Shown: positions 19,640 to 46,255 of the stretch, piece by piece
Numbering within the stretch: the first letter of the stretch is position 1
Layout of the letters: each line of letters starts with the position of its first letter
Source of the DNA: Dipteris shenzhenensis
Lineage: Eukaryota
NCBI GenBank assembly: GCA_047967505.1
Contig: CM106538.1
Strand: one strand, 5' to 3'
Length of the DNA stretch: 64,000 nucleotides
The notes under the pieces: model-generated
What the model saw: the letters and a program-made list of their open reading frames with translations, nothing else
What the model was told of the DNA's origin: nothing
The model's database searches: none
Position numbers and translations under genes: made by a program

Positions 19640-19690
<51 letters not shown>

Positions 19691-20780
19691 CCCTCACTCC
19701 TCTCTCTCTCTCTCTCTCTCCCCTCCCTCTCTATGCTGCCCTCTCTCTCTCAGCCCCGCTCAGCCCCTACCGCTGAGCCCCTCTGCCTCAACCACCCCTC
19801 ACCCGCTCCTCTCCGCCTCTCTCCTGCTAGCCTTACTCAGCCCCTCCCTCTAGCCCCCGATAGCCCCTGCCCAACCCCTCCCGCTAGCCCCTATCACTCA
19901 GGCCCTCCCACTAGCCCCTCTGCCTCAGCCACCCCTCACCCGCTCCTCTTCGCCTCTCTGTGCTTTGCCTATGCTCCCCTCCCCTACCATCTCCCCTCCC
20001 TCTCTACACTGCCCTCCCTCTCTTAGCCCTGCTCAGTAGCCCCTCCCACTAGCCCTCGATAGCCCCCCCTCCCCTACCGTCTCCCCTCCCTCTCTACATT
20101 GCCCTCCCTCTCTCAGCCTCGCTCAGCCCCTCCCGCTAGCCCCTGCTCAGCCCCTCCCGTTAGCCCCTATCGCTCAGCGCCTCCCGCTAGCCCCTCCGCC
20201 TCGGCCACCCCTCACCCGCTCCTCTCTGCCTCTCTCCAGCTTACCTCAGCCACCCCTCACCTCCTTCTCACTTTCCGCCTCCGCCATGCCTCAGCCTCAG
20301 CCACCCCTCCACCTTGCCTCGCCTCAGCCTCGCCTCACTCTTCGCCTCGCCTCCCCTCACCTCCTTCTCTGCTTCCTCCCTCTGCCGCCACCTCCCCCTC
20401 CTACCCCAGCAGCTTCCTCCCCTCCATCCCCCCACCTCGTGCTCAAACCTCTCTCTCTCATACCCTTCTCTCTCTCCTCCCTCCCTCCTTTCCTCCCTCT
20501 CTCTCCCCCTCCACCCCTCCATCCCCCCACCTCCCTCTCGAACCTCTCTCTCTCATACCCCCCCTCTCTCTCCTCCCTCCCTCCTTTCCTCCCTCTCTCT
20601 CCCCCCTCCACTTCCCTCTTCCTCCTGGAGGCCGCGATCCCTAAGGCTCCTCTCTTTCTCTCTAAACTTTCTCTCTCTCTCTCTAGTTCCTCTCACCTCT
20701 CTCTCTCATACCCGCCTCTCTCTCTCCTCCCTCCCTTCTTTCCTCCCTCTCTCTCCTCCCTCCAGTTCTTTCTTCCTCCT
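18615..20780 (+). repeat. 2.1-kb CT-rich polypyrimidine low-complexity tract with a recurrent GC-rich motif
   Basis: Mostly C and T on the plus strand; a motif like gggggccgcggc(t/c)gccagg recurs near 18896, 19012, 19257, 19461, 19621 and 20627; (CT)n run at about 19642-19688. Confidence 0.9.
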
Positions 20781-23700
20781 AGAGGCAAAAATGGTAAAAC
20801 GGTATTTAATGCTCAATCAACCATGCAATGCATATCTGATCGGCATAATACTTTACTTGCACCTCAACCTAGGTAATATTGACTTGTTTAAAAAAAGGCA
20901 CACCCATCATATAAGTACTTGGTTGGATAACACACCTAAGGGCGTGTTTTTTTACGGATGTGCATATCACTAGGGGGGAAAGGGTGTATAATGCATGATC
21001 AATCATGCAAAGCATATCCAATGGTCACAATACTTTTCATGCACCTCAACCTAGTTTAACTTGACTTGGGTCACAATTTGTTGCACGCACCTCAACCTAG
21101 TTGAAACGGACTTGCGTGCAAAGTGGAGCCCCCATCTGAGAAGTACTTGTTTGAATAACACACCTAGGACCGTGTTTTTTTATGGTTGTGCATGACACTA
21201 AGGCGAAAACGGTGTTTTATGCTTGATCGACAATGCAAAGCATATCCGATGGGTACAATACTTTGCACACACCTTCAACTAGGTGGAATTCACTTACATG
21301 CAAAGTGGCATGCCCATCCCATAAGTACTTGATCGGATAACATACCTAGTAGCGTGTTTTTTTACGGCACACCTAGGACCGTGTTTTTTTATGGTTGTGC
21401 ATGACACTAAGGCGAAAACGGTGTTTTATGCTTGATCGACAATGCAAAGCATATCTGATCGGTACAATACTTTGCACACACCTTCAACTAGTTGGAATTC
21501 ACTTACATGCAAAGTGGCATGCCCATCCCATAAGTACTTGATCGGATAACATACCTAGTAGCGTGGTTTTTTACGGATGTGCATGACACTAGAGCAAAAA
21601 TGGTATTTAATGCTCGATTGACACTGCAAAAGATATCCGATGGGCACAATACTTTTCCTACGCCTTAACCTAGGTGGTATTGACATGTTTTCAAAGAGGC
21701 ACACCCATCCAATAAGTACTTGGTCAGATAACACACCTAAGGGCGTGCTTTTTTACGGAATGTGCATATCACTAGGGGAAAAATGGTATATAATGCATGA
21801 TCGACCATGCAAAGCATATCCGATGGTCACAATATTTTGCATGCACTTCAACCTAGTTGACACGGACTTGCGTGCAAAGTGGAGCTCCCATCTGAGAAGT
21901 ACTTGTTTGAATAAGACACCTAGGACTGTGTTTTTTTATGGTTGTGCATAACACAAGAGCAAAAACGGTGTTTTATACTTGATCGACAATGTAAAGCATA
22001 TCTGATGGGCACAATACTTTGCACACACCTTCAACTAGGTGGAATTTACTTACATGCAAAGTGGTCCACCCATCCCATAAGTACTTCATCGGATAATATA
22101 CCTAGCAGTGTGTTTTTTTATGGATGTGCATGACACGAGCAAAAATGGTATTTAATGCTTGATCGACAATGCAAAGGATATTCGATGGGCACAATACTTT
22201 TCCTACACCTTAACCTAGGTGATATTGACATGTTCTCAAAGAGGCACGCCCATCCAATAAGTACTTGGTTAGATAACATACCTAAGGGCATGCTTTTTTA
22301 CGGATGTGCATATCACTAGGGGAAAAACGGTGTATAATGTGTGATCGACCATGCAAACCATATTTGATGGTCACAATACTTTGCAAGCATCTCAACCTAG
22401 TTGAAACGGACTTGCATGCAAAGTGGAGCCCCCATCTGAGAAGTACTTGTTTAAATAACACACCTAGGACCGTGTTTTTTATGGTTGTGTATGACATAAA
22501 GGCAAAACCGGTATTTTATGCTTGATCGACAATGCAAAGCATATCCGATGGCATAATACTTTGCACATACATTAAACTAGGTGAAATTGACTCACATGCA
22601 TAGTGAAGCGCCCATCCCATAAGTACTTGATCGGATAACGTACCTAGTAGCGTGTGTTTTTTTACGGATGTGCATGACACTAGAGCAAAAATGGTATTTA
22701 ATCCTCGATCGACAATGAAAAGGATATCCGATGGGCACAATACTTTTCCTACGCCTCAACCTAGGTGGTATTGACATGTTGTGAAAGAGGCACACCCATC
22801 CAATAAGTACTTGGTCAGCTAACACCCCTAAGGGCATGCTTTTTTACGGATGTGCATATCACTAGGGAAAAAACGGTGTATAATGTGTGATCGACCATGC
22901 AAAGCATATCTGATGGTCACAATACTTTGCACGCACCTAAACCTAATTGAAACGGACTTGCGTGCAAAGTGGAGCCTCCATCTAAGAAGTACTTGTTTGA
23001 ATAACACACCTAGGACCATGTTTTTTTATGGTAGTGCATTATACTAAGGCAAAAATGGTGTTTTATGCTTGATCGACAATGCAAAGCATATTCGATGGGC
23101 ATAATACTTTGCACACACCTTAAACTAGGTGAAATTGACTTACATGGAAAGTGGAGCACCCATCCCATAAGTACTTGATCGGATAACATACCTAGCATCG
23201 AGTTTTTTTATGGATGTGCATGACACTAAGGCAAAAATGGTATTTAATGCTCGATCGACCATGCAAAGAATATCTGATGGACACACTACTTTTCCTATGC
23301 CTCAACCTAGGTGGTATTGACATGTTTCAAAGAGACACACCCATCCGATAAGTACTTGGTCAGATAACATATTTAAGGGCGTGTTTTTCTGCGGATGTGC
23401 ATCACTATGGGAAAAATGGTGGATAATGCGTGATCGACCATGCAAAGCATATCCGATGGTCACAATACTTTGCATGCACCTCAGCCTAGTTGAAAGAGAC
23501 TTGCGTGCAAAGTGGATCCCCCATCTAACAAGTACTTATTTGAATAACACACCTAGGAGCGTGTTTTTTTATGGTTGTGCATGACACTAAGGCAAAAACG
23601 GTGTTTTATGCTTGATCAATAATGCAAAGCATATCCGATGGGCACAATACATTGCACACACCTTCAACTAGGTGGAATTGACTTACATGCAAAGTGGCGT

Positions 23701-26700
23701 GCCCATCCCATAAGTACTTGATAGGATAACATATCTAGCAGCGTGTTTTTTTACGGATGTGCATGACATGAGCAAAAATGGTATTTAATGCTCGATCGAC
23801 CATGCAAAGAATATCCGATGGGCACAATACTTTTCCTATGCCTCAACCTAGGTGGCATTGAAATGTTCTCAAAGAGGCACACCCATCGGATAAGTAATTG
23901 GTCAGATAACATACCTAAGGGCATGTTTTTTTGCAAATGTGCATATCACTACGGAAAAAACGGTGGATAATGCGTGATCGACCATGCAAAGCATATCCGA
24001 TGGTCACAATACTTTGACGCACCTCAACCTAGATAAAATGGACTTGGGTGCAAAGTGGATCCCCCATCTAAGAAGTACTTATTTGAATAAGACACCTAGG
24101 ACCATGTTTTTTTATGGTTGTGCATGACACTAAGCCAAAAACGGTGTTTTATGCTTGATCGACAATGCAAAGCATATCCAATGGGCACAATACTTTGCAC
24201 ACACCTTCAACTAGGTGGAATTGACTAATTAGACATATTGCCCTCCATGCTCATAGTTTGGTCTGTGCTTGATTCGTATTCAAACAATGGTCCTAGCACA
24301 GATGATGTACTGTTCAATGAAGATCTTTCCCTAGCGGTTAGACTTGAGCCCAAAACGACCTCTAAGTCAACATTTGAAGCACTATCTTCTGGAACAATTT
24401 CAGGTCCTAAGATACGTCCGGACCTAAGATGCATGTATGTTTCTAAGGTTCAGGTTGGATTTGAGCTATGCTATCAAAGTGTTCAAGTTGTAACAATCAA
24501 AATGTGCAAGTATGGTGGAGAGAATTATTGCAATGCGCTGTAATAATTATTGCAGCGCCCTGAATTATTGGGGCTTCTTACTCACTCAGTCTGGTCAATG
24601 CACTTGTGTTATGGAAATGTTAACCCATGCAAAGTGGCATGCCCATCCCATAAGTACTTGATCGGATAACATTCCTAGCATCGTGTTTTTTTACAGATGT
24701 GCATGACGCTAGAGCAAAAATGGTATTTAATGCTCGATTGACAATGTAAAGGTATCCGATGGGCACAATACTTTTCCTCCACCTCAACCTAGGTAGTATT
24801 GACATGTTATCAAAGAGGCACACCCATCTGATAAGTACTTCGTCAAATAACACACCTAAGGGCGTGCTTTTTTATGAATGTGCATATCACTAGGGGGAAA
24901 ATAGTGTATAATGCGTGATCGACCATGCAAAGCATATCCGATGGTCACAATACTTTGCACGCACCTCAACCTAGTTGAAACAGACTTGCATGCAAAGTGG
25001 AGCCCCCATCTGAGAAGTGCTTGTTTGAATAACACACCTAGGACCGTGTTTTTTTATGGTTGTGCATGACACTAAGGCTAAAACGGTGTTTTATGGTTGA
25101 TCAAAAATGCAAAGCATATCCGATAGGTACGATTTTTTGCACACACCTTAAACTAGGTGGAATTGACTTACATGTAAAGTGGTGCCCATCCCATAAGTAC
25201 TTGATCAGATAACATACCTAGCAGCGTGTTCTTTTATGGATGTGCATGACACCAAGGCAAAAATGGTATTTAATGCTCGATCAACCATGCAAAGCATATC
25301 CGATGAGCACAATACTTTTCCTACGCCTTAACCTAGGTGGTATTGACATGTTTTCAAAGAGGCACACCCATCCGATATGTACTTGGTCAGATAACACACC
25401 TAAGGGCATGTTTTTTTGTGGATGTGCATATCACTACAAGAAAAACGGTGTATAATGCATGATCGACCATGCAAAGCATATCCGATGGTCACAATACTTT
25501 GCACGCACCTCAACCTAGTTAAAACAAACTTGCGTGCAAAGTGGAGCCCCCATCCGATAAGTACTCAAGTGTTTGAATAACACAACTAGGACCGTGTTTT
25601 TTTATGGTTGTGCATTACACTAAAGCAAAAATGGTGTTTTATGCTTGATCGACCATATCCAATGGGCATAACACTTTGCACACACCTTAAACTAGGTGGA
25701 ATTGCTTACATGCAAAGTGGCATGGCCATCCCATAAGTACTTTATCGGATAACATACCTAGCAGCATGTTTTTTTACGGATGTGCATGACACTAAGGTAA
25801 AAATGGTATTTAAAACTCGATCGACCATGCAAAGCATATCCGATGTACACAATACTTTTTCTATGCCTTAACCTACCTAGGTGGTATTGACATGTTTTCA
25901 AAGAGGCACACCCATCCGATAAGTACTTGGTCAGATAACACACCTAAGGGCGTGTTTTTTTACGGATGTGAATATCACTACAAGTAAAACGGTGTATAAT
26001 GCGTGATCGACCATGCAAAGCATATTCTATGGTCACAATACTTTGCACACACCTTAATATAGTTGAAACAGACTTGCGTGTAAAGTGGAGCCCCCATCCG
26101 ATAAGTACTTGTTTGAATAACACACCTAGGACCATGTTTTTTTATGTTGTGCATTACACTAAGGCAAAAATGGTGTTTTATGCTTGATCGACAATGCAAA
26201 GCATATCCGATGGGCATAACACTTTGCACACACCTTAAACTAGGTGTAATTGACTTACATGCAAAGTGGCATTCCCATCCCATAAGTACTTGATCAGATA
26301 ACATACCTAGCAACGTGTTTTTTTACGAATGTGCATGACACTAAGGCAAAAATGGTATTTAATGCTCGATCGACCATGCAAAGCATATCCGATGGGAACA
26401 ATACTTTTTCTATGCCTTAACCTAGATAGTATTGACATGTTTTTAAAGAGGCACACCCATCCAATAAGTACTTGGTCAGATAACACACCTAAGGGCGTGT
26501 TTTTTTGTGGATGTGCATATCACTATAGGAAAAACGGTGTATAATGCGTGATCGACCATGCAAAGCATATCCGATGGTCACAATACTTTGCATGCACCTC
26601 AACCTAGTTGAAACAGACTTGTGTGCAAAGTGGATCCCCCATCCGATGAGTACTGGTTTGAAAAACACACCTAGGACCGTGTTTTTTTATGGTTGTGTAT

Positions 26701-28435
26701 GACACTAAGGCAAAAACGGTGTTTTATGCTTGATCGACAAAGCAAAGCATATCCGATGGGCACAATACTTTGCACACACATTAAACTAGGTGGAATTGAC
26801 TTACATGCAAAGTGGCACACCCATCCCATAACTACTTCATTGGATGACCTACCTAGCAATGTGTTTTTTTATGGATGTGCATGACACTAAGGCCAAAATG
26901 GTATTTAATCCTTGATCGACCATGCAAAGGATATCCGATGGGCATAATACTTTTCCTATGCCTCAACCTAGGTGGTATTGACTTGTTCTCAAAGAGTCAT
27001 ACCCATCCGATAAGTACTTGGTTGTATGACACACCTAAGGGCGTGTTTTTTTTCGGATGTGCATATCACTAGGGGAAAAATAGTGTATAATGCATGATCG
27101 ACCATGGAAAGCATATTCATGGTCACAATAATTTGCACGCATCTCAACCTAGTTGAAATGGACTTGCGTGCAAAGTGGAGCTCCCATCTAAGAAGTACTT
27201 GTTTGAATAACACACTAGGACCGTGTTTTTTTATGGTTGTTCATGACATTAAGGCAAAAACGGTATATTATGCTTGATCCACAATGCAAAGCATATCCGA
27301 TGGGCACAATACTTTGCACAAACCTTAAATTAGGTGGAATTAACTTACATGCAAAGTGGCGCACCCATCCCATAACTACTTGATCGGATAACATACCTAG
27401 CATCGTGGTTTTTTATGGATGTGCATGACACTAAGGCAAAAATGGTATTTAATGCTTGATCAACCATGCAAAGGATATCCAATGGGCACAAAACTTTTCC
27501 TATGCCTCAACCTAGGTGGTATTGACTTGTTTTTAAAGTCACACCCATTCGATAAGTACTTGGTTATATAACACACCTAAGGGAGTGTTTTTTTACGGAT
27601 GTACATATCACTAGGGGAAAAACGGTGAATAATGCGTGATCGACCATGCATATCCGATGGGCACAATACTTTTCCTATGCCTCAACCTAGGTGGTATTGA
27701 CTTGTTTTCAAAGAGGCACACCCATCTGATAAGTACTTGCTCAGATAACACACCTAAGGGCATGTTTTTTTATGGATGTTCATATCATTAGGGAGAAAGT
27801 AGTGTATAATGCGTGATCGACCATGCAAAGCATATCTGATGGTCACAATACTTTGAACGCACCTCAACCTAGTTGAAACTCACTTGCGTGCAAAGTGTAG
27901 CTCCCATCTGAGAAGTACTTGTTTGGATAACACACCTAGGACCGTGTTTTTTTATGGTTGTGCATGACACTAAGGCAAAAACGGTGTTTTATGCTTGATC
28001 GACAATGCAAAGCATATCTGATGGGCACAATACTTTACAAACACCTTAAACTAGGTGGAATTGACTTACATGTAAAGTGGCGCACCCATCCCATAAGTAC
28101 TTATTCAAATAACACATCTAGGACCTTGTTTTTATAGTTGTGCATGACACTAAGGCAAAAACGGTGTATAATGTAGGATTGCCTATGCAAAGCATATCTA
28201 ATGGAAAAAATAGTTTGCATATCCGTGAACCTATGTGGTGTTGAGTTTCATGCAAAGTGATGCTTCCATACCATAAGTACTTGTTCGGATAACATACCTA
28301 GGAGCACGTTTTTTAACTGTAGTGTATATCACAAGGATGAAAATGTTGTATAATGCATGATTAACAATGTAAATCATATCCGATGGGCATTATACTTTGC
28401 GCACACCTCAACCTAGGTAGTATTGATTTGTGTGC
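20781..28435 (+). repeat. Tandem satellite with a 182-bp monomer and about 546-bp trimeric higher-order repeat (left part, about 40 monomers)
   Basis: aagtact recurs every 182 bp (21141, 21323). The variant tggtatttaa recurs at 21601, 22146, 22692, 23238 and 23779, a period of about 546. Confidence 0.96.
24227..24625 (-). mobile_element. About 400-bp retroelement-like fragment (leader plus possible gag N-terminus) inserted in the satellite
   Basis: Interrupts the monomer ttgact|(ta)catgcaaag with no TSD. The minus-strand ORF begins MHLRSGRIL, a motif typical of Gypsy gag N-termini. Confidence 0.6.
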
Positions 28436-29355
28436 TGTTATGGATAAAATTGTCTAAGGAAAAAGGCATTAATATGTATGTGTGTTTGTATATGTGGCAA
28501 TAGTATAATAAAATATGATGTGCATAGGGCCCAAGGTTGAGGTGGCAGGGCATGACCATGTGCCACCCTTCCATGTAAGAGGACCCATAAGGTGTGTTGT
28601 ACATAATCCATGATAGTAATATTATAAAATGCAAGGTGGCATGGCTCCTCCATGTGCCACCCCTCCACCTAGACTGCATTTAGTGAGATATGGCTCAAAG
28701 TCCATGGGAGAAGCAATATAAAATAGGTGGAGATGGCTATTATATTGAGTTATTCCCTCCATATGGGATAGGCCCATGTGGGGGAGGTATAGAAGGTCTA
28801 AGAGAGCAAGTTAAATAATGGGGAAAGTAGGATGAGGTGGCAAGATTCCTTGTGCCAGCCCTCCACTTGTCCTCCTAGAGGTTTGAACATATTATAAAAT
28901 TGGAAAGAGACCAAGGGAGTATCATAGACTTGAGATATGGGGCTTGATTTATGTGGAAAATTGAGGCAAAGGGTTGTCGCACACAATTGAGAGTGCGTAA
29001 CCACCTAGCTCACATGGGAGACTTTTCCACACACACCATGCATGTGGGAGGATACATTAATGTGGAGAGACCCCCTCTTTTGATATTTCCTCTCATTCCT
29101 TTCTTTCAAATAAAGTATGGTTCTCTTCCCTTGATGTCTCCATCTCTACATTCCTCCTCCTACCACGTACATGCTTCTCTTCCCCTTCTCCTTTTCCCCT
29201 TGTGTCATAGTCTCCCTCTTCCTTCCCTCCATTTCTAATTCCTTTTTCCCTCCTATGACAACCGTTCGCTCTCATGATCTCCTTTTCTCCATGGCCCTTG
29301 AGCGTCGCCATGCCTAGCCTCTAGCCTCTGGTCTCGGTTTCTTTTCTAGCTAATA
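28436..29355 (+). repeat. Gypsy 5' LTR (920 bp), lacking a 71-bp TATA-containing segment
   Basis: TGTTA...TAATA termini; about 8 substitutions versus the 3' LTR by eye. Confidence 0.96.
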
Positions 29356-29359
29356 GATT

Positions 29360-29398
29360 TGGTGTGGCTGCTGGGATTCGAGCCCAGGTCTCCACGGC
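29360..29398 (+). promoter_or_regulatory. Extended primer-binding site: 39-nt antisense copy of the 3' half of tRNA-His(GTG), including CCA
   Basis: TGGTGTGGCTGCTGGGATTCGAGCCCAGGTCTCCACGGC is the reverse complement of GCCGTGG-AGAC-CTGGG-CTCGAAT-CCCAG-CAGCCAC-A-CCA. The T-arm stem-loop is visible directly; the His assignment rests on my recollection of plant cytosolic tRNA-His. Confidence 0.88.
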
Positions 29399-29496
29399 TA
29401 GTGGCGAATCTTCTACTCATATGGGTCACATCTATAAAACTATACCATTTGTGCTCTTTCTAAGCTATTGCGCGTGCATTTGATTCGCGTGTCTCC

Positions 29497-29700
29497 TGTG
29501 CGACAGTTTTTTTTCGGGACTGCTGCAACTTCTGGTTGCGGATAGTTTTCTGTGTTCACCCGCGCGACAGTTCTCTGGACTGCTGCAACTTCTGGTTGCG
29601 GACAGTTTTCTGCGTTCACCCGCGCGACAGTTCTCTGGACTGCTGCAGCTTCTGGTTGCGGACAGTTTCTGCATTCACCTGCGCGACAGTTCTCTGGACT
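29497..29700 (+). repeat. 60-bp tandem repeat (about 3.4 copies) in the Gypsy leader
   Basis: tgctgca(a/g)cttctggttgcgga...cgcgcgacagttctctggac starts at 29521, 29581 and 29641. Confidence 0.93.
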
Positions 29701-30059
29701 AACAGCAGATCCCGCGCCCCCCCTCTCTCTTCTCTTCCTCTCTTTCTCTTTCTCTTTCTCTTTCTCCTCTCCTCTCTTTTTATTAAAGAGTAGGATTGGA
29801 ACCCAAGACCTCCCCCTTCACAAAAGAAAGTCTTATCATTGGGACAACAAGTTGGAAGTGGTAAAAATGTAATGATTTTTGTTCATATATTGAAATCGCG
29901 GGAACTGTAACTCTCTAACCGTAGGGAGTTTGCTCTTGCTGTAAAAAGCAAAAATACTTCATTTTATGTGCTCTATCCACATCTCTTGCTAGATCGCCGA
30001 TTCAGAACTTCTCCAAGCTCACTTCACGGATGCACGCCACACGAGAAGGGTGGACATTT

Positions 30060-30470
30060 ATGTCACTTCTCGACGTGTTTAAGGAGTTGGTGCCTGTTTC
30101 TCCGCACCTTACGGCTACCAATGCATGAGATGTCTTCCTTGATCTTCATGTCGACCTTCAACAGCTGATTGTCCAGTGCATTATTGAAGGAGATGACGGG
30201 TGGAATGATACACTATGGATGATTCATGGTGAAGAACTACTGATACGCTGGGAGGATTTTGACTTTACTTCTACTCATTGTGCAGTGATCGAACTACTTG
30301 CTGCTTCAGAGGTAATTAAAACGGTGTCCTTCATCGAAGGGTGGGATGCTCCCCAAGCTTGGGGGGAGATTTGGTGCATCTGCTTGTTGATTCCTGTGGA
30401 TAAGCTCGTCCTGAATGGTTTATTCACAATCTCATTACAAAGGTTTCTAGGCCTCGGCTATGGTTGGTAA
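30060..30470 (+). pseudogene. Accessory ORF A, unknown protein of about 136 aa with one internal TGA
   Basis: MSLLDVFKELVPVSPHLTATNA*DVFLDLHVDLQQLIVQCIIEGDDGWNDTLWMIHGEELLIRWEDFDF...CLLIPVDKLVL...GYGW*. Homologous to 46455-46830 on the minus strand. Confidence 0.8.
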
Positions 30471-30694
30471 TGTTTCGACCAAGGAATCCATTTGTACCTA
30501 ATCAGTCTTTTGTGCCTCATTTCGAGCTTCAAATTGTAATTCTTTTTGGGCTTAAGATAAACTATCAACAAAGGATTGCAAGCTTATTTGGTGTTGAACG
30601 TTTGGCTCAAGTGTTGAATTCTCCCCACCCTCTCCTCCTACCTATCTTGGACTACCGAGAAACTTGGGATGTCCGAATTTTAGTCTTGGTGTGA
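30470..30694 (+). CDS. Accessory ORF B, 74-aa unknown protein
   Basis: Its ATG overlaps the ORF A stop (TAATG, 30468-30472) and its stop overlaps the RNase H ATG (TGATG, 30692-30696). Confidence 0.6.
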   Translation: MFRPRNPFVPNQSFVPHFELQIVILFGLKINYQQRIASLFGVERLAQVLNSPHPLLLPILDYRETWDVRILVLV

Positions 30695-31158
30695 TGACAT
30701 CTTGGATTCTTCAATTTGATGGAGCTTACAAACCTTCGACCAAGGCGGCTGGCGTGGGTGTGAAGCTCACTTCACCGGGTGGTGAGGAGTATTGTTACAG
30801 CAAGTCTTCACCCACAAGTACTTACAATCAAGCTGAGTACTCGGCGCTCATTTTTGGGCTACAAAAGGCACAAGAACATCATGCCAAGTAATTGGAGGTG
30901 CAAGGAGATTCTCAACTAGTGTGTGAACAAGTTAGTGGAAGGTGGAAGATGCGGAGCAAAGGCTTGGTTCCACGACATCAACAAGCCTTGGAACTTTGCA
31001 ACCAATTTGAAGAGGTAAAAATTCAGCATATCCCTCGAGCTCGAAATCTTGTTGCTGATTTCTTGGCACGTGAAGCTTGTACTTCAATCACGCATGATGC
31101 GAGTGGAAGCGCCACCCCAACAAAGCCGCAAGCCACGAAGGAGGGTGATCATTTGTAA
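30694..31158 (+). pseudogene. Stand-alone archaeal-type RNase HI (aRH) with one internal TAA at 30889-30891
   Basis: WILQFDGA, AGVGV, TYNQAEYSALIFGL, VQGDSQLVCEQVSGRW and HIPRARNLVADFLA: all four D-E-D-D catalytic residues plus the Arg typical of archaeal-type RNase H. Confidence 0.93.
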
Positions 31159-31294
31159 GGAATGCAAAGGTTGTGGTCATCATGAAACTAAGTGTTGGGC
31201 ATACTTAATACGAGTTCATCGACTTCGGAAGATCATCAGGAGGGTTCTCAAGGACATTGCTCAAAAGAAGGATGCCAGACCGCACACCCCTTGA
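31094..31294 (+). CDS. Accessory ORF D, 66-aa basic protein with a CCHC zinc-knuckle-like motif
   Basis: MMRVEAPPQQSRKPRRRVIICKECKGCGHHETKCWAYLIRVHRLRKIIRRV; CxxCxxxGHxxxxC spacing; overlaps the aRH 3' end. Confidence 0.55.
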   Translation: MMRVEAPPQQSRKPRRRVIICKECKGCGHHETKCWAYLIRVHRLRKIIRRVLKDIAQKKDARPHTP

Positions 31295-31436
31295 AGAAAT
31301 AGCATGGCGACTACAAGAACTGGAAGAAGCTGAAGGTGATGTGCAAGCTCTCCAACTGTTGACATTTGTCATGGCATTCTTGTTTGCCGTGATGAACAAC
31401 CTCATGCAACGCCGCGCCTCTAACCCTCGCTTGTAA
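31272..31436 (+). CDS. Accessory ORF E, 54-aa peptide with an acidic helix and a hydrophobic segment
   Basis: MPDRTPLEEIAWRLQELEEAEGDVQALQLLTFVMAFLFAVMNNLMQRRASNPRL*; overlaps the end of ORF D; shorter than the ORFs listed in the track. Confidence 0.4.
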   Translation: MPDRTPLEEIAWRLQELEEAEGDVQALQLLTFVMAFLFAVMNNLMQRRASNPRL

Positions 31437-31651
31437 AGATCGATGTGATATCATGAGGGTTGGTCCTTTTAAGATTGTCTATGTGCTATTCTATGCTGAA
31501 GATTCTTCTCGTGTAATATTTCACACTACACCAGTCACACCCTACCCTGCCTATGTGTGCTTTTTGGATGTATCTTCACCCGATTTTCAGTTCAAGCTTC
31601 CTCTTACTATTGTTCGTCCATAGATAAGCCCCTCTTTTCCATCTTCCAAGC

Positions 31652-32600
31652 ATGGCTAACATTCCCGTGTTTTGTGGACGGGTAGAAGAAAATCCAAATG
31701 AGTATCTTGTGGCCTTCAAGCGCCGTTGTATTTCTCTCAACTTTCTTACTGAAGACAGATGGCTATTGGTTCTTTCCACATTTCTAGAGGGTTTGGCTCA
31801 AGTGTGGTATGAGAAGCAAGCCGAAGACGTTCGCTAAAGCTGGCCAAGGTTGACAGCAGCAATGATTGAGTATTTCGGCAAAGAAGCGGAGTCGGAGAAT
31901 GTGTACTTGCAGGTGGCAAACTTGAAGCAGTCAGAAGGTGAGACGGCACGTCAATATGTGGATCAAGCGGCCGTGCTCCTGGACCGTTTGATTGCCACAC
32001 AAGAGGACAATGCCGGGTTTCGAGCTGGAATGACTCAGCATGTGTTGGGCTACCTTGTAGCAGGAGCGAGTGATGAATTCCGCCTCAAGCTTAAATGGGA
32101 GAATCCAGAAACTATGGTGCTAGCACATGAGATTGCTCAAAAGTTTGATAAAGTTTAGTCTGGACCCCGCTTCAAAGAAGATGATTGTCCCTCCGCAACC
32201 CCCTCAATTCCTGCAACAACAACTTGGGGGGTCTAACTCAGGGGCATACCCCCACCCCTCATCAAGGATGTATCCACCGCCTCCACCTCAAATGTATGGT
32301 CCTCCCTTAGATGCTTACCCTCAATAAGGTGGATATCCTCACCCTCCGCCTCGAAGATTTCCCCAACCTCGCCCACGAGCCCCCCTCCTCTCTACTCCCA
32401 TGGCCCCTCCAACTAAAGAGGCCCCCCTTGCAACAGAACCTGGAGTCAATGACCTAGCCAAGGCCCTGAATGATCTTCGGCTTGAGATGGTGGGCATCAG
32501 AAATCAAGCCAACCGCCCTCCAAGAGACCGTGCTAATGTTGTATTTATGAGTGCCATCAGAAGGGTCATTATCGCACAGAATGTCCCAATATTCCAAGGG
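31652..32600 (+). pseudogene. Gypsy gag with stops and frameshifts
   Basis: IPVFCG...ENPNEYLVAF, FLEGLAQVWY, LKQSEGETARQY, a proline-rich linker and a zinc-knuckle remnant YECHQKGHYRTECP near 32545-32586. Confidence 0.9.
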
Positions 32601-35600
32601 TGAATCTTCTAAGTGAGTCGGGCACTGAGGATTTTGATGTAGAGATCCTCGACCTCGGGAAAAGAAGTCGTGCCACCTCGGACCCCTCTCCAAACCATGG
32701 ACCGGGCCGCCCCAGGAAGAAGGTGTCCTTCTTAGAGCCGTCAGATGCTGAGATGGCAGACCCACCAACAGAGAAGACTAAAAGATCTCGCAGGAGTAAG
32801 TGGTCACCCTCGGATTTTCCCATCGGCTCAGGGCAAGAGGACTATTCGGTCGTTCAGGACCTTGCTCATCGGTCTTTGAGCATCACACTCCCTCAACTAA
32901 TAGCATTAAGCCCTAAGGTGAGACGTGGGTTGCAGCAAGGTCTCTCAACAAGGAAGAGCAAGAAAAAGGGAAAGGTACGAGAGGTATCTTCTATCTCTGA
33001 AGAAATTGATCGGCACCCACATACAGTAGATGTCATCATAGATAATTGCCGTGTCAAAAATGTGTGTGTTGATGGGGGAGCTGCATGTAATATCATGGTG
33101 CCCCGAATCATGAAGAAATTGAATTTGAAATGTACAAGGCATTCCTCCACTCGAATCAAGGTAGCAGATGGTCGACGACTCTCCACCATGGGAGTCATTG
33201 AGGATTTGCCCATCACTGTCAATCGGTTGACCACCACTGTTAATTTCTATGTAGTGGACATTGAAGATATAGGCCGAAGTTACCCAGCCATACTCGGGAG
33301 ACCATGGTTGAGAAAAAGTGATGCAGTCAGCTATTGGAAGACAGGACACATGTCTTTTGGTGCTTCGAAGGAGCAGATCCCAGTGCAACCTGGTGCCATG
33401 GAACCGGAAGAAGAAGAGGAGCATGACAGTGATACTATCTCATCTTCAGTGTCTGAGTCCACGGAAGAATCACACGGGGGGGAGGAATTCTCAGAGGAGG
33501 AAGTTTACATGATGGGGGTGTCTCCGACCCTACCACCTACAGAAAAGATAACAGCTAGTCCTCAACAGCTTGAATCTATGCTTTCCCCAGATCTCACTCC
33601 AAGTGAGAAAGATGAGTTTCTAGAAATGTTCAAAGATTTCCCTGACCTCTTTGCAACTAGCTACCACCACCTTCGCCATGTGACTACCATAGAGCACAAG
33701 ATAGAGCTGAAGCCAGATGCGAAGCCTGTGGCTCAGAAGTATCGGAGATTAGGGCCCCTGCAGACCGATGCTTTGCGCTTAGAGTTGCAGAAGCTTGTAG
33801 AGGCTGGGTTTATTGTTCCGGTTCACAATACTGAATGGGTTTCACCAGTGGTAGTCATCCCAAAGAAAAACAACAAGTGGCGGGTCTGCATCGACTATAA
33901 GAAACTCAATGCCGCCACCAAGAGGGATCATCATCCTCTGCCCTTTCAAGACCTCATTCTTGAGAAGGTAAGTGGTCATGAGATGTATACTTTCTGTGAT
34001 GGTTACTCTGGGTTTTATCAAATCAGAATTGCCGAGGAAGATGTGCTTAAAACCACATTTGCCACGCCCTGGGGGACATTTGCATTCAAAGTAATGCCAT
34101 TTGGCCTCACCAATGCTCCTGTTACCTTTCAAAGATTTATGCAGATGGTGTTTGCTCCTTATTTGGGGGATTTCTTGGAGGTGTTTTTAGATGATTTTTG
34201 TATATTCTTGTCACATAAGGAGCACAATCCAGACTGGTCAAAGACCTTCTATATCAATCCTGGGTTTGGTGAGCACACTCTGGCAGGTATTCTTCTCCAG
34301 CAAGGGGAGGATCGGTTCATGTATCCCGTTCGATTTGCTTCTCGACAATTGCTCGACACTGAGCGACGCTATTCAGAGGCCGACAAGCATGCCTTGTCTT
34401 TGGTGTTTTGCATTGAGAAATTTAAGCATTATGTGGCTGGAAAGTCCTTCTTTATACTCACTGGCACTGGTCTTGCAAAGCAGGTTCTTCAATCACCAAA
34501 TCCCATGGGCTAGTTGGCCAAATGGTTGGCAGTTCTACAAGAATATGATTTCTCTTTCAAAATTGTAAAAGGGGGTTGTTCCAACTTGAAGAATGCTTTG
34601 ATTGATTTAGAGGAGTGCCTTGATGTAACCCTTGTAGCAGCTTCTGAAGGAAAGGAGAAAGTAGTCAAAATCTTGTAGATACCACCATACCAAGGATCCC
34701 CAACTTGTATCCGCAGAGATAGTAGGCGCTACACCCTCCTTGATGGGGTGTTGTACTGTCAAGGCATGGATGGGGTACTCAGACGGGCCATTGATGCAGA
34801 TGGTGCCTGGATGGATTTTGTGGAGGCCACTATGCCAGTGACTATACAGCTAAGAAGATTTTACATGCTCGATACTATTGGCCGACCTTGTTCAAGGATG
34901 TCACTTTGTATTGCAAAACCTGTGAACCATGTCAATTCTTTGGTAGGAAGGATTTGCGTCCTGGGCAACATCACCCAGTAATGTCCATCCATCCGTTTCA
35001 GAAGTGGGGAATAGATTTTGTCGGGCCCTTGCCCATGACTGCCCGCAAAAAGAAGTATCTTTTGGTAGCCACTCAGTACGTCACTAAGTGGGCTGAAGCT
35101 ATCACCCTCTCTGCTGCAAATGGCAAGGCAATTTCAAATTTCATATTTGAACGTATCTGCACAAGGTTCGGGACACCCATGGAGATAGTCTCTGACCATG
35201 GGAGTCCATTCTTAAATGAAGCAGTGGAGTTACTCATGGATCGCATGGGCATTGATCATCACACTTCTAGCATCTATTATCCAGCATCCATGGGTCAAAA
35301 ACAGAGCGGACCAATGGCCTCCTTTGTAAAACCATGGGAAAAATGGCCGCAGGGAATAGGAGCCAATGGGATCACAAGGTCACTGAAGCCGTGTGGGCTT
35401 ACAACATCACTCATAAAACATCTACAGGTCACACTCCTTTTGAGTTGGTGTATGGTACTGAGGCAGTTTTACCACTAGAGATAGAGATTCCGGCCTTGAG
35501 ATTGGCACAGGAATAGAGGATGACAGAAGATGAACATGTAGAGGCTAGATTGGTACAACTTGAGAAGTTAGATGAGACCCGACGCCTTGCACTACACCAA

Positions 35601-35900
35601 ACAGAGATCCAAAAGAATCGACAAAAGGCCCGATTGGATGCTAAGATTCGCAAGGGATGGGAAGAGACTTTGCTGAGGGGGATGTTGTGCTATGCTTTGA
35701 TAACAGATTGGACCACCAAATGGATAAGAAGTTTCTGCCACTGTGGGCTGGTCCATACAAAGTCATCAAAGAACGTAGCAATGGGTCTGCACAAGTTCAG
35801 GAGCTACATGAACCATATGGCAAGAAGGTGATCAACAAGCGTTACCTCAAGCCTTTCTTTGTGCGTGATGGGCCCAGGCATGGAAATGCTGTGCATTCCC
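32600..35900 (+). pseudogene. Gypsy pol: protease, RT (C-terminal deletion), degenerate RNase H, integrase
   Basis: PR VDGGAACNIM and ILGRPWL; RT WVSPVVV, DYKKLN, DGYSGFYQI, MPFGLTNAP and FLDDF; RH region NPDWSKTF..RFASRQL; INT CKTCEPCQ, WGIDFVGP, IVSDHGSPF and WAGPYKV. Confidence 0.95.
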
Positions 35901-35905
35901 TGCCT

Positions 35906-35918
35906 GGGGGGGGGGAAC
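35906..35918 (+). promoter_or_regulatory. Polypurine tract
   Basis: GGGGGGGGGGAAC immediately before the 3' LTR TG. Confidence 0.9.
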
Positions 35919-36909
35919 TGTTATGGATAAAATTGTCTAAGGAAAAAGGCATTAATATGTATGTGTGTTTGTATATGTGGCAATAGTATAATAAAATATG
36001 GTGTGCATAGGGCCCAAGGTTGAGGTGGTAGGGCATGACCATGTGCCACCCTTCCATGTAAGAGGACCCATAAGGTGTGTTGTACATAATCCATGATAGT
36101 AATATTATAAAATGCAAGGTGGCATGGCTCCTCCATGTGCCACCCCTCCACCTAGACTGCATTTAGTGAGATATGGCTCAAAGTCCATGGGAGAAGCAAT
36201 ATAAAATAGGTGGAGATGGCTATTATATTGAGTTATTCCCTCCATATGGGATAGGCCCATGTGGGGGAGGTATAGAAGGTCTAAGAGAGCAAGTTAAATA
36301 ATGGGGAAAGTAGGATGAGGTGGCAAGATTACTTGTGCCAGCCCTCCACTTGTCCTCCTAGAGGTTTGAACATATTATAAAATTGGAAAGAGACCAAGGG
36401 AGTATCATAGACTTGAGATATGGGGCTTGATTTATGTGGAAAATTGAGGCAAAGGGTTGTCGCACACAATTGAGAGTGCGTAACCACCTAGCTCACATGG
36501 GAGACTTTTCCACACACACCATGCATGTGGGAGGAGACATTAATGTGGAGAGACCCCCTCTTTTGACTATAAAAGGAAGGGGCTATTCCTTGATGAGACA
36601 CGCTCATTCTTGTAAAGCCACCTAGCTAGTATTTTGATATTTCCTCTCATCCCTTTCTTTCAAATAAAGTATGGTTCTCTTCCCTTGATGTCTCCATCTC
36701 TACATTCCTCCTCCTACCACGTACATGCTTCTCTTCCCCCTCTCCTTTTCCCCTTGTGTCATAGTCTCCCTCTTCCTTCCCTCCATTTCTAATTCCTTTT
36801 TCCCTCCTATGACAACCGTTCGCTCTCATGATCTCCTTTTCTCCATGGCCCTTGAGCGTCGCCATGCCTAGCCTCTAGCCTCTGGTCTCAGTTTCTTTTC
36901 TGGCTAATA
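35919..36909 (+). repeat. Gypsy 3' LTR (991 bp)
   Basis: Near-identical to 28436-29355 plus 71 bp (36567-36637) containing TATAAAA. Confidence 0.96.
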
Positions 36910-37860
36910 GTGCAAAGAGGTACCCCAATCCGATAAGCACTTGTTCGAATAACTCTTCTAGGACCGTGTTTTTTGACGGTTGTGCATGACGCTAAGGCAA
37001 AAACGGTATTTAATTCTCCCTTCACCATGCAAAGCATATGAAATGGGCACAATACTTTGCATGAGCCTCAAAAGTGGTGGTATTGAGTTACATTCAAAGT
37101 ACTACACCATCTGATAAGCACTTGGTTGGATAATACACCTAAAAGCGTATTTTTTTATGGTTGTGCATGACATTGAGGCACAAATGGTGTTTAATGCGTG
37201 ATATACCATGCAAAGCATATCCGATGGGCACAATACTTTGCACGCACCTCAACCTAGGTGTTATTGAGTTGCAGCAAAGTGGCATGTCCGTCCGATAAAT
37301 ACTTGATCAGATAACACACCTAGGAGCGTGTTTTTAAACGAATGTGCTTGACACTAAGGCAAAAACGGTATTTAAAGCTCAATTGACCATGCAATGCATA
37401 TCCGATGGGTAAAACACTTTACCTGCACCTCAACCTAGGTGGTATTAACTTGTTTGCAAAGAGGCACACCCATATGATAAGTACTTGGTTGTATAACACA
37501 CCTAAGGGCGTGTTTTTTTATAGATGTGCATATCACTAGGGAAAAAAAGGTGTATAATGCATGATCGACCATGCAATGCATATCTGATGGTCATAATACT
37601 TTGCACACACCTCAACCTAGTTGAACTTGACTTGTGTGCAAAGTGGAGCCCCCATTTGATAAGTACTTATTTGAATAACACACCTAGGACCGTGTTTTTT
37701 ATGGTTGTGTATCACACTGAGGCACAAATGGTGTTTAATGCATGATATACCATGCAAAGCATAGCCGATGCGCACAATACTTTGCATGCACCTCAACGTA
37801 GGTGTTATTGAGTTGCATGCAAAGTGGCATGTCCATCTTATGAGTACTTTATCGGATAAC
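36910..37860 (+). repeat. 182-bp satellite, right part (about 5 more diverged monomers)
   Basis: The same monomer resumes in register after the Gypsy TSD. Confidence 0.93.
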
Positions 37861-38009: not shown

Positions 38010-39707
38010 ATGGATGTGATTTTATGTAGCAAAAGAGAAGTAGTTGCATTTGCTACAATCCATGATAGTGATCCCAATTCAGTTTGCCACTTTCAAAGAC
38101 TTGGCGAAGATAAGGTGGCAGTTACTGTATCAAAGATTCTTAGCGCACATGTTGAGCTAAAGTATAAATGTGAAGATATGGAAACACTTGGAGATGTTAT
38201 GCCCTACAATACATCCAACAAATCATTTATAGCATGGGACAAAGATGAGACTTAAGTAACAGACATTATCAAGAATACAAAGTGCACCACCTTGGATTTT
38301 ACTATAGGGGACATTTTACAAATGAGATCATTTGCAAATAAGACTATAGCAAAAGGTGAAGTATTGGGATTCGAACAAGTGGAGCAATGGTCATTTGCAC
38401 AAATGAGGATTCTAAAAGTCACTGATGATGGTATGGTTGATAACATAGCATCCTTATGTGATCCCTACTATGAGGTAGGCAAGAATATGGGATGGAGCAT
38501 GCAATTTTTAAACATGAGAAAGAGCCACATGGTTTTCAATGATAAAGACAAGGTATACTACAATATCAAAGGACCTAAAAAGCATGCCCATGTGCTAGGA
38601 TCTATCACTTCAAACATGGATGATTTCAATGTACTCAATTATAGAAGTGACATCTTATCTGGAGTGGATGAGTTCATTGGTTTCGAGAAACAAAATGATT
38701 TTAGAAGCGAAGCCTTATCTGGGGTGGATGAATTCTTGCATAGTGAGAAGGGCAAAGATTTCAATAGCGATGTCTTGTCAAGTGTGGATGAGTTCATGCA
38801 TATTAACAAACCTAGTGTCAATCAAGCTTGTGGATTTGTGAAAGCCATGCAAGATGTCCCAATGAGTGATGTTCTCTCAGGAGTGGAAGAGTTTCAAGGT
38901 TCTCAATACTCTTGTAGAATATTGAATTCATTGTATGGTCCTAAGAGTATGCTAAAAACGAGGATGAGATCAATAGAGGATTATTCAATATTTAACTTTG
39001 ATTGTGATATGGCCAAGGATGCAACGACCAATCATGGATGCTTGGTTACAAACAAATGTGAGGAGAAGAAGTGCATAAATACAGATAACAACGTGCACAA
39101 GGAACAAAAACGGTCATACATATGCATGAAGAGAAAGCTAATCCAAGCAGATCCACAAAAGCAACCAAAGAGGAAGAGAGTAATGAAGGAGGAGAACATG
39201 TTAAATGCATTGGGACATCTATGTTGCAAGCGAAGATGTATGCACTTCATTGATCTTGCAGACATCAAGGAATATAGAGGACATGTGTGGCAAAGAAGAG
39301 GAAGCGAAAGAAATGAATACCTTCTCACAAGTCTCTCTTGCTTTCTTCAGAATGGCAATAAAAGGCTAAGTTCAAGACTTGCAAATGGAAAAAAGATTTG
39401 CAATAAGGCATATCGCAATATTATTGGATTATCCCATGGTACATATTGGGATTTAGTCACCAAGGCGAAGGGTGGCAAGAAATTTAGCATTCACAATAAT
39501 AGAGGAAGGTCCAAATCAAGAATCTCAACTGTCAGGGTAGCAGCAATTTCGCAAGACTTCATACATGAAAATGATTTACCTCAACCCCATATATCTACCA
39601 AACTCCCTAACAGTGATGCGATCATTGAAATGCACCTTCTAATGTGGGTATCTATGATGACATCGCATAGTATGAAGAATGGGTCATTTACAATATCTTT
39701 CCTTTAG
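38010..39707 (+). pseudogene. DNA-transposon-related ORF: En/Spm TNP1-like N-terminal domain, SGVDEF repeats and a Cys/His region resembling Sola-type transposase N-termini; truncated
   Basis: ORFs 38010-38255 and 38292-39707 share a frame and are separated by one TAA. Motifs: VVAFATIHDSDP..HFQRLGED..V.V..ETLGD..FIAW; CCKRRC..R..VW..RNEYL..ICNKAY..IIGLS..HNNRG..PH. Family assignment is from recalled motifs only. Confidence 0.55.
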
Positions 39708-42289: not shown

Positions 42290-45200
42290 TGCCTATTTAC
42301 ATAGGCAGATTACCACATCTATAACCATCCAATTGGGAAGGAGATCCGATCTCCCATGTGGAGCAATTTGAACAAATATGCAAAGCATTCAATGCTCCTA
42401 GAGATCTAGAAATGGTTAATATATTCAGCCTCAGCCTAGATGGCAAGACAAGCCAATGGTACAAGGCCCTCAACCCAGAGGAGAAAGTCAACTGAGAGGT
42501 GTTACAGAAAGCCCCTTCATTATAGGCTTTGCCCCTAGTGGTCATAAGTGGAGCTCGATTAGTCAGTTATATCAAGTGAAATATATTGATAAGGAATCCC
42601 TCCGAGACTATATCACTAGGATCAAACACCTCAATTCCTGTTGCAAACCGCATGAGAGGATGAGCGACGAATGAGACTATTGCCACGCTTCCTCATGGGA
42701 TTGGTGGACCCGAAGCTACATGACCACTTAATTGTTATGAATCCCACTTCCTTTGAACTCTGCAGTAAAGTAGTTATCTGTATAAGTGATAATATGATGG
42801 ATAAGGACATCAAGGACAAGACTACAACTCCATCCAAGGTATCACAATCGCTAAGGTCTTCCATTATGGAGACTACCAAGAAGGAGGACAAAGGGTCTAA
42901 AGGTTTAGATATGGGTGAGCTAGCCTCTAGTCTATTGAATCATTTGGGCCAGTAGTGGAGGTCAAGAACCTCCTAGGAACCACCAAGTAACTCCCACTTA
43001 TTCCCTATAAGGGACAATGTTTTGTGTGGGGTATGCAATGGCAATAATGATACCTTTCAATGCCAATTTCCAAAGGTCCTTCCCCAATTGATCTACTAGT
43101 CGAGGCCCCACCTAGGCCTAATAGCCCCACCCAACCTGATGAATGCACAAGGATCCCCTCTAGCCAATCCAGGGTAATATAGGACATGAGATGCTCCATT
43201 ACCACCACCCATACTAGGTCTGCAACTGCCCCCACTTCGTATAACTCCAATAAACCAAATATTGGTGGAAGAACTACCTAATGATTGGGAGGAGGTAGAA
43301 CATGATCATAGTAGACATCCCACCTATCACCCTTATGAGGGGGGAAGTGGCATCAAACACTACCTCTTACATGAGGATCAACATGTTCCAGTGTTCCAGA
43401 CAATGCCCGTGGCTACAAGGGCAAGAGACATGAGCTCCTTGGCATGAAGGCCCCGATTCAATTATACATGTTAGGGTCCACACAAAGCAAGTGAATGCCC
43501 ATATAAGGGTGCAAGAAACCCTCCTCTCTCATGTTTTAAATGCCAATGGCCACATTTTTTAAAGGACTATCCATATAGGATCTTACCCTTGTGGTTTTGC
43601 CCACAACAAGTCCCATGCCCTTGTGTGCTGGAGTGGAGAATTTATTCAAGGATTGCCCCCTAAAAAGCCCAGTGACTCCAGCCACCCTGACCAAGAGCAC
43701 TAGCATCAATTTACTAAGTATTGAATAGGGTCACCTTGCAGTAGTGCCCTTGAAGGCCATCACAAGGATGTAGGAAAGGGCCATAGGCAAGGAGATGAAG
43801 AAGTAGCAAGGAAGGACAAAAAATCCACATTGCAAATTCGAGAGGCATGCCCAAGCCCTCGTGTAGACCAAGAAGGTCACCATGGTGGTCGAAGGCATGA
43901 ATCAGGGCTTATCCAAGATGGTTTAGATGAGAAGACATCCACCCTTTCCACCTCCTCTACCTCTGGACGAGTCCCTTCCCTAGACAATTCGAGGTATGCT
44001 CCCATACCTGGATGTAAATAAGCCAATGGGGGCCCAAGGCCTCACATCTCCAACCCCTCATAAGGGAACATATCCCGACCCAGCCTTAGAGAGACAATGC
44101 TTAATAGATTCTTAGAACTTGGTGCAAGAATGTCAAGAGAAGTTTGAGCATAGACTCAAGGTCAACAGAGGGTCAGAGACCACCATCCACCCTAATCACC
44201 TAACCACTCATAGGTGAGAAAAGGCACTTAGGGTGCTAGAGAGAGTGGAAGAAGAGAAACCTCCTAGCCCTAATAACTCAGGGTTAATGCAATGGATGTT
44301 CTAAGAGGACCCTATGCTGCAAACCCTATGCAACTTAATGCAATGGATGTTCCAAGAAGACCCTATGTTGCAAAACCTAAGAGAGGAAGGAGACCTTTAT
44401 GGCTTGGAGGAGCCTCTATCGATGGGGAGAGAGACCCCCAAGGAACCTTGTGATATTGCCAGGTTAGTGGCCTTCCTCTCCACATAGGTCAAGATGCCAA
44501 TTGCATCCTTGTTAAGAGGGAACCCTCTCCTATGGCGAGACCTCTCAAGATGGATGAACATGCAATTCTTGTCCCACCAACCCTGAAGACAACCAACCAC
44601 AGGAGGAGAGCCAAAACCTACCCAAGGTTCCCATCAATAAGTTAGGCTAGTACTTTGGAGGGGATGACACTAATGCAGCTATCCCCATAACCTACCAGAA
44701 CCAAAAGGTTGATGCCATCCTAGATGGAGGAGCGGGTGTGAGTGTCTGCACCAAAGAATGTTGGGAGAGGTGGGGAAAACCTTCCCTCAAGCAAACCCAT
44801 CTAGCAGTAAATCTAGCCAATAGAGGAATCGATGAACCCCTGGGAGTTCTCATGGGTATTAACATTAAGGTGTTTGGCTTCACATTCCTCGTTCGATTTG
44901 TGGCCATGGAATTCACCCAATAGCCCAGATATGAAGCCATCCTAGGTAGGCCCTTCCTACAAATGTCTAGACTCGTACATGATTGGTGCATGAATAACAT
45001 CTATTTACGGCATGAGGAGCAAATCATGCAAGTGGAACTATGTACATACAAGGCCCACCACTATCAAGACACCTTTTTGCCATGGAATCAGACACAACAG
45101 ACATGACTACAACACTGAAACTATTCCAATCTTATGAGAGAGGCATCGGGAAGGAAGCAGATGAGTTTTTGTATGCCCCTCTCCTCGAGTCAGAGTTCTC

Positions 45201-46255
45201 TCAAAATCGGATGCACATTCTGGCAAACATTGATGTCCCAGAAAGAATAGGGTTCTAAATAATAACCCTAAAGTGTGAAAAGTTGAATATAGTGGTGCCC
45301 CTTAGAATGTTTAACATGCTCCAAGTGAGGGTCAAATCAGACTACCGTATGTGGGTGCCACTACTACTCAGCATAAGTTCTCCTCCAATTAGGGATCTGA
45401 GTTAAGTTACCTCTCTAGTCGGCTCCATGAATGCCATGAAGGAGCCCCCCTCAGGTCCAAAGCTCCCAAGTTCCAAAAGCCCTAAGGCTTCCACCAGCGG
45501 CAAAGGGGGAAACCACCCAAAAGGAAGTGAAGGAGGAGGAGGATGAAAAGGAGGAACTATGACATGTACCTTCCCATTATAAGGCCTACATATGCTAGAG
45601 GATCACAAGATCTTATGCCAGCAATCCAAGAGAACCCAGGAAGAAGGGTGATTCCAAGGATACGATGGCCCAACCAAGGTTAAGGAAGTAAACCTGGCAT
45701 CAGAAGGTGAGGACCCATGATCAATATACATAGGAGATGACCTCACCCCAAACAAGGAGCATGCCTCAATTGCCCTCCAAGAGTATGAGGACTACATGGC
45801 TTGGAAGTACACATACATGAAGGGTATGCCACTAAGGTCATACAACACATGATACCCATGCTAGATGACATCAAGCTAGTGTGATAAAGTCCCTATTCTA
45901 TGAATCCCAAATATGCGCTCATAGTGAGGGAGGAGATCCAAAAATTCATAGATGTAGGATTCATCTATGAGATAGAGCATACAGACTAGGTGTAACCCAT
46001 TGTGATAGTCTTGAAGAAGAATGGAAAGATTCAAGTATGTGTAGACTTGAAAAAGGTCAATGCCACCACAAGCCGCGACCACTACCCATTGCCTTTCATA
46101 AAACATGTTCTAGAAAGAGTAGCCAGAAAGGAAGCTTATAGCTTCCTAAATGGGTTCTTGGGATACAATCAGGTATCCATCACCCCAAAAGATCAACATA
46201 AAACTACCTTTTCAATCGAGTGGGCTGTGTATTGGCCAAGGTGATGATATTTGGA
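42290..46255 (+). mobile_element. Highly decayed Gypsy internal region (gag, PR, partial RT), truncated in RT
   Basis: Gag-like GDPISHVEQFEQIC and ESLRDYITR; PR AILDGGAGVSV and AILGRPFL (about 44710-44960); RT KKNGKIQVCVDLKKVNATTSRDHYPLP and GYNQV..DQHKTTF. Confidence 0.88.

Follow-up and report, generated by a model that had tools for sequence, protein, structure and literature searches.

The window analyzed here is the whole 64,000-nucleotide stretch of Dipteris shenzhenensis DNA (assembly GCA_047967505.1, contig CM106538.1), and part of it is occupied by a long terminal repeat (LTR) retrotransposon of the Ty3/gypsy type. As shown in Table 1, this element carries an archaeal-type ribonuclease H (aRH) in an open reading frame (ORF) of its own, placed between a long leader and gag, and the native ribonuclease H (RH) domain of its pol is degenerate. 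The element is very probably a recently inserted, defective copy of the Tat clade with the layout published as structure #4, also called pre-capsid. An earlier sequence-only reading had placed the structure of interest at 30694–34513, a span that proves to be only part of the element. All the marks of a Ty3/gypsy element are present, namely the LTRs, the target-site duplication (TSD), a primer binding site (PBS) adjoining the 5′ LTR and a polypurine tract (PPT) adjoining the 3′ LTR; the domain order is gag–protease (PR)–reverse transcriptase (RT)–RH–integrase (INT) according to the Pfam and tblastn maps, with the protease match below the Pfam cut-off.

Table 1. Features of the retrotransposon in the window, with positions counted from the first letter of the stretch.
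Feature	Position	Strand	Basis
Whole LTR retrotransposon	28436–36909	+	
TSD, GTGC, 4 bp, left and right copies	28432–28435; 36910–36913		
5′ LTR, 920 bp (TGTTATGG...CTAATA)	28436–29355	+	blastn of LTR pair
PBS, 29 nt complementary to a tRNA 3′ end (CCA, acceptor strand, T arm)	29360–29388	+	sequence read
60-bp tandem repeat in the leader, 3.1 copies	29517–29700	+	
Upstream ORF, 74 codons, ATG at 30470; its TGA overlaps the aRH ATG as TGATG	30470–30694	+	
aRH ORF, 154 codons, ATG at 30694, stop at 31156–31158; catalytic carboxylates D9, E48, D72 and D122; interrupted by TAA	30694–31158	+	Pfam, alignment to relatives
CX2CX4HX4C zinc-knuckle motif (CKECKGCGHHETKC), +1 frame relative to the aRH	31154–31195	+	
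gag, capsid-type Retrotrans_gag domain; nucleocapsid zinc knuckle near 32540–32590	31652–32603	+	
Aspartic protease domain, weak match, aligns to the protease of relatives	33026–33313	+	
RT fingers and palm, ending at an in-frame deletion junction	33662–34225	+	
Native RH, degenerated to a tether-like domain	34226–34650	+	RT_RNaseH_2/RT_RNaseH, alignments
Pre-integrase region and integrase (H2C2 zinc domain, rve core, GPY/F region)	34679–35845	+	
PPT, G10AA, ending one base short of the 3′ LTR	35906–35917	+	
3′ LTR, 991 bp, retaining a 62-bp stretch (36571–36631) that contains CTATAAAAGG	35919–36909	+	

The aRH ORF matches the Pfam families RVT_3 (E 2.5e-26) and RNase_H (E 5.7e-8), and it is the only aRH match in the whole window. 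Its relative P0001 (handles beginning with P denote related protein sequences), which is intact and 84% identical, matches archaeal-type enzymes of known structure, with Halobacterium RNase H1 (4e19) at E 1.6e-17, and further structural matches were obtained with Mycobacterium Rv2228c (3hst) and Sulfolobus tokodaii RNase HI (2ehg and 3aly). The sequence-only reading had described a complete aRH with its own ATG; the start codon and the D-E-D-D residues are indeed in place, but codon 66 (30889–30891), a sense codon in the intact relatives, is an in-frame TAA in the window. As that reading also held, the ORF lies about 1 kb before gag. The two are unfused: the ATG of gag comes 958 bp after that of the aRH, the spacer counted from the aRH stop is 494 bp long, and it contains stops in all three frames. 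The leader 5′ of the RNase H ORF is 1.3 kb long. When the three forward frames of the leader (29357–30693) and spacer (31159–31664) were compared with Pfam, only one sub-threshold match, to an LGFP repeat, was obtained, and the lack of an RT or other domain remnant there speaks against nesting of an L1 or another element. There are 15 ATGs between the aRH stop and the gag ATG and 20 in the leader ahead of the aRH, and simple scanning fails to explain translation of the aRH. Two features at the borders of the ORF, the TGATG overlap and the zinc-knuckle motif, may be relevant here. In at least four sequences (the window, P0001, P0002 and P0008), the ORF begins and ends with codons of its own, and the aRH is therefore most simply read as a separate 154-residue protein that would act in trans.

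The native RH of pol was compared with six non-Tat gypsy proteins bearing DAS/E/TDH/AD, and the residues found at the catalytic positions of the window are N (34256), H (34388), G (34463) and A (34595); a HMMER alignment to Ty3 (4ol8, 7q5b) concurs for the E and second D positions. The three motif replacements called in the sequence-only reading are thus right, and the fourth carboxylate, which it had not listed, is lost as well (the A at 34595), but the FYINPGF peptide on which one of the calls was based sits only 8 residues past a deletion junction. This in-frame deletion, at about 34207–34226, has removed approximately 122–128 residues at the boundary where RT ends and the RH region begins; the residues left unmatched are 226–376 in Ty3, 413–540 in P0090, 586–707 in P0077 and 278–399 in P0093, and the RVT_1 match covers profile positions 1–165 of 205. 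No second aRH was found within pol, where the pre-integrase region follows the RH directly and leaves no gap for one.

The rest of the coding region is damaged too. The gag product scores 27.1 bits against Pfam Retrotrans_gag (cut-off 24.1), and its frame is broken by in-frame stops at 31835 and 32156 and by frame changes before and near 32537, ahead of the nucleocapsid knuckle. The protease matches gag-asp_proteas (E 9e-4) and Asp_protease_2 (E 1.6e-3), both below the curated cut-offs. Farther downstream, pol has TAG codons at 34511 (in the RH) and 34676 and frame changes near 34804, 35310 and 35700. The copy is therefore dead, with the aRH, gag, RT and pol all broken and the 5′ LTR without its TATA-like stretch; the breakage of aRH, gag and pol had been overlooked in the sequence-only reading.

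Related sequences show that the ORF is not peculiar to this copy. A search of proteins of near length with the aRH ORF gave 41 hits. P0001 and P0002, clusters of 8 and 25 member sequences, respectively, are intact 154-aa proteins that are 84% and 81% identical to the window aRH over 100% of the query, share its start and stop and keep all four carboxylates; seven further relatives in the same search are fragments with 71–83% identity. The C-terminal end (...HL, stop) is common to P0001, P0002 and P0008. In P0009, the 74-codon ORF that precedes the aRH in the window is represented by the same leader fused in frame to the aRH, with 49 of the 70 aligned residues identical; P0009 therefore shares the context of the aRH and not the ORF alone. 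A search of longer proteins for a fused aRH returned 35 hits with at most 42% identity and hence no close fused form among them, and those hits with named sources are all angiosperm Tat polyproteins or similar. In a metagenome scan with P0001, none of the 85 pattern matches encoded a relative. Between copies, the RNase H core is 86–94% conserved, compared with 59–78% for the C-terminal tail and 70% for the translated leader, which is a weak hint of constraint and not a test of selection.

Fragments of the family's pol were found by a full-library search with the stretch from RH to integrase. For instance, P0157 (72% identical) shares with the window the substitution of the catalytic E in the native RH, and in P0159, P0175 and P0216 the native RH is followed by the pre-integrase region without an intervening aRH. 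The proposal of the sequence-only reading that a lineage supplies its RNase H separately thus stands as regards the separate ORF, the degenerate native RH and the absence of aRH from pol across the family, but not as regards its novelty, and the copy on which it was built is broken.

The closest named relatives of the pol are elements of the fern Adiantum nelumboides, whose RT is up to 68–69% identical and whose aRH lies inside pol. In the RT tree, the window is sister (Shimodaira–Hasegawa-like approximate likelihood ratio test, SH-aLRT, 90) to a 14-row clade made up mostly of elements with the aRH in pol, including those of Adiantum. It falls within a starred clade (95) that also holds loci of the 'zero structure', which have no aRH, and that is apart from angiosperm Tat; the window and angiosperm Tat lie together inside a starred clade that excludes the four non-Tat gypsy rows. 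Given this sister position next to fern-type elements that have an in-pol aRH, the hosts and clusters from which structure #4 has been reported may not include the family. A separate capture of the aRH was also considered, as the aRH tree places it nearer the angiosperm-type aRHs (SH-aLRT 91), but a grouping with the fern-type aRHs is not rejected by the approximately unbiased (AU) test (p 0.356), and this candidate was dropped.

The same RT clade offers a natural control. Among the related metagenome loci without an aRH (locus handles begin with L), L002, L005, L006, L007 and L011 keep the full DAS/E/TDH set and L008 keeps E and TDH only, whereas in L003 and L004, which have the aRH in pol, the native RH is degenerate. 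The window family fits this rule, with an aRH present and the catalytic residues of the native RH lost, and this correlation favors the upstream ORF as the source of working RNase H in the family. As a separate observation, P0090 is an intact pol of 1126 aa whose native RH is degenerate and which contains no aRH; by its RT, it is sister to a group of elements (L002, L005–L008, L011) that are devoid of any aRH and retain the native RH motifs.

Taken together, the order LTR, PBS, long leader, stand-alone aRH ORF, spacer, gag-PR-RT-degenerate RH-INT, PPT and LTR is the layout published for structure #4. In working members of the family, the upstream ORF would supply the RNase H for reverse transcription as a separate polypeptide, and by analogy with the model for retroviruses and Tat, this aRH would degrade the RNA strand during reverse transcription. 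The native RH would persist, catalytically inactive, as a tether or connection domain of the retroviral kind. The window copy itself is unable to supply these functions. Several points weigh against this reading. The aRH of the window is interrupted at codon 66, and expression of the upstream ORF is a prediction. The statement that the aRH always lies 5′ of gag is based on the window copy and on short protein fragments. In an RT-alignment scan of metagenome contigs, from which 80 loci were kept, many of them short, the aRH was upstream of gag in none of the 80 and in pol in 4. Finally, the rows of the RT tree comprise no labelled Athila or Tat A–L references, which places the position relative to Tat B and Tat C outside its scope.

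It is possible, if unlikely, that the RNase H is joined to another module, either by a +1 frame change into an ORF with a CCHC knuckle or by splicing to gag. The first Cys codon of the CX2CX4HX4C motif overlaps the aRH stop codon, and the motif sits in a very basic short ORF (31019–31294), the residues flanking the knuckle included. Two such motifs occur in the six frames of the 64-kb window, compared with a mean of 0.03 in 100 shuffles. The conserved end of the ORF in P0001, P0002 and P0008 can be counted on the same side, as can the question of how an aRH in a separate ORF could function, which is posed as open in the literature (PMC10508981). Against these points, the +1-frame knuckle ORF has no match to the Pfam zinc-knuckle models even at E 10, there are 8 stops in the +1 frame between the knuckle ORF and gag, and no recognizable slippery site was found, no search for one having been made. 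A physical coupling of the stand-alone RNase H to this nucleocapsid-like knuckle is accordingly put forward with considerable reserve. If true, it would give the separately encoded aRH an RNA-binding route into the particle and thereby offer a specific solution to the problem, raised in print, of how such an enzyme can serve reverse transcription. The knuckle overlap is the only lead that goes beyond the literature; the TGATG overlap at the other border of the aRH ORF may be a chance event.

That the upstream ORF is a decaying relic, in a family relying on the RNase H of other elements or of the host, is improbable, and distinctly more so than a joined module. The window's own aRH has the in-frame stop, and the GDSQ motif is lost in 2 of the 7 close fragments, since P0007 has other residues in its place and a frame change ahead of the motif leads P0009 into divergent sequence. 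However, the 33 member sequences of the two intact clusters keep the full 154-codon frame with start, stop and all four carboxylates at 81–84% identity, the core is better conserved than the tail and leader, and within the same RT clade catalytic loss in the native RH goes with the presence of an aRH and retention with its absence. The same 33 sequences show that the aRH is not confined to a single copy; such confinement was one of the circumstances that the sequence-only reading had named as fatal to its proposal. A one-off capture or nested insertion, for example of a host RNase H gene or of the tail of a plant L1 element, or a rearrangement moving the aRH out of pol in this copy, is very unlikely, since the large internal deletion and many lesions of the window copy and the occurrence of the same RNase H type in plant L1 elements (PMC4408406) are set against many separate close relatives of the ORF elsewhere, one of them (P0009) with the same upstream leader, against flanks free of RT or other domain remnants in the three forward frames, and against other family fragments that likewise have no aRH in pol. 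The reading as a defective structure #4 copy is thus retained.

The element splits a 182-bp satellite array (21368–28430 and 36910–37860; about 39 plus 5 copies, 70–74% matches), and when the flanks were rejoined and aligned to the satellite monomers, the match across the junction was 172 bits with 4 bp removed, 167 with 3 bp removed and 154 with none removed, which corresponds to a clean empty site within the satellite and a 4-bp TSD. The LTR pair is 99.2% identical over 653 columns and 98.6% over 279 columns by blastn. Apart from one 62-bp indel, the LTRs differ at only 9 of the 932 aligned columns, which points to a fairly recent insertion, and the copy was either mobilized in trans or decayed quickly. 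The 62-bp stretch that is missing from the 5′ LTR holds the TATA-like CTATAAAAGG and has a short direct repeat at its bounds (36571–36631 compared with 29079–29086). A related LTR piece at 49138–49774 on the minus strand, 82–86% identical to the element's LTRs and with no internal domains of the family nearby, covers most of the stretch too, so the difference is read as a loss from the 5′ LTR. The PBS begins 4 nt past the end of the 5′ LTR; neither tRNA genes nor Rfam matches were found in the 64-kb window (0 of each).

Several other features were observed in the window. A Ty1/copia element lies at 4593–8574 on the minus strand, with Retrotran_gag_2, gag_pre-integrs, Pol_BBD, SH3_retrovirus and RVT_2 matches over several broken frames, and a second, unrelated gypsy-type fragment with protease and RT lies at 44720–46232 on the plus strand, its RT being 40% identical to that of the element and no aRH lying near it. 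A 760-codon open frame (60436–62718, minus strand) has a legume-lectin domain at residues 53–288 (E 2e-68) and no Pfam kinase in the remainder, and a 483-codon open frame (38256–39707, plus strand) has no Pfam match and contains a repeated SGVDEF-type peptide. In addition, the stretch 18000–21000 is C/T-rich and strongly skewed, with a GC skew down to −0.69 and several tandem repeats.

It has been reported in several studies that plant retrotransposons of this clade carry an additional RNase H. Ustyantsev et al. 2015 (PMC4408406) defined the Tat elements bearing an archaeal RNase H (aRNH) and found it at several positions of Pol. Neumann et al. 2019 (PMC6317226) list three aRH positions, all within the polyprotein. 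Biryukov and Ustyantsev 2023 (PMC10508981) surveyed 92 plant genomes and described structure #4 in Tat B of four mosses and in Tat C of the clubmoss Selaginella tamariscina; the native RH is degraded in all aRH-bearing Tat structures in that survey, and the authors ask how an aRH in a separate ORF could function, a question that the sequence-only reading had raised too, in terms of packaging into particles. The name 'pre-capsid' is used by Prokopeva et al. 2026 (PMC13468544), with credit to Biryukov and Ustyantsev 2023 and to Wang et al. 2021. Another literature search for this layout led back to these publications. The architecture that the sequence-only reading took to be undescribed had therefore been in print since 2023 as structure #4 (PMC10508981), which is one of the outcomes that this reading had itself listed as refuting its proposal, and the window adds a further, dead example. 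What it can still contribute is material on how an RNase H encoded outside pol joins reverse transcription, for which the family offers near-identical LTRs, numerous intact ORF copies elsewhere and a pair of oddities at the ORF borders, the TGATG overlap and the knuckle.

Among the known systems, the element shares with Tat structure #4 the Ty3/gypsy order, a separate aRH ORF ahead of gag, the absence of aRH from pol and a degenerate native RH; it differs in that the window copy is defective and in that the nearest named RT relatives are Adiantum elements with the aRH in pol. Tat structure #1, the retrovirus-like dual RH found in ferns, hornworts and the angiosperm Ogre/Retand elements, has the same aRH type and a degenerate native RH as a tether, but its aRH lies between the native RH and the integrase inside pol, whereas that of the window lies ahead of gag. 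The Tat 'zero structure' (Tat Z1/Z2) belongs to the same broad RT clade and has the same gag-PR-RT-RH-INT order, but in its elements the native RH retains DAS/E/TDH and an aRH is absent. The retroviral RT is comparable in that an acquired RNase H of cellular type replaces the native one, which decays into a non-catalytic tether or connection (PMC10508981). Unlike the retroviral enzyme, in which the new RNase H is a covalent part of Pol, the aRH of the window is the product of a separate gene, and its delivery to the particle therefore needs another route.

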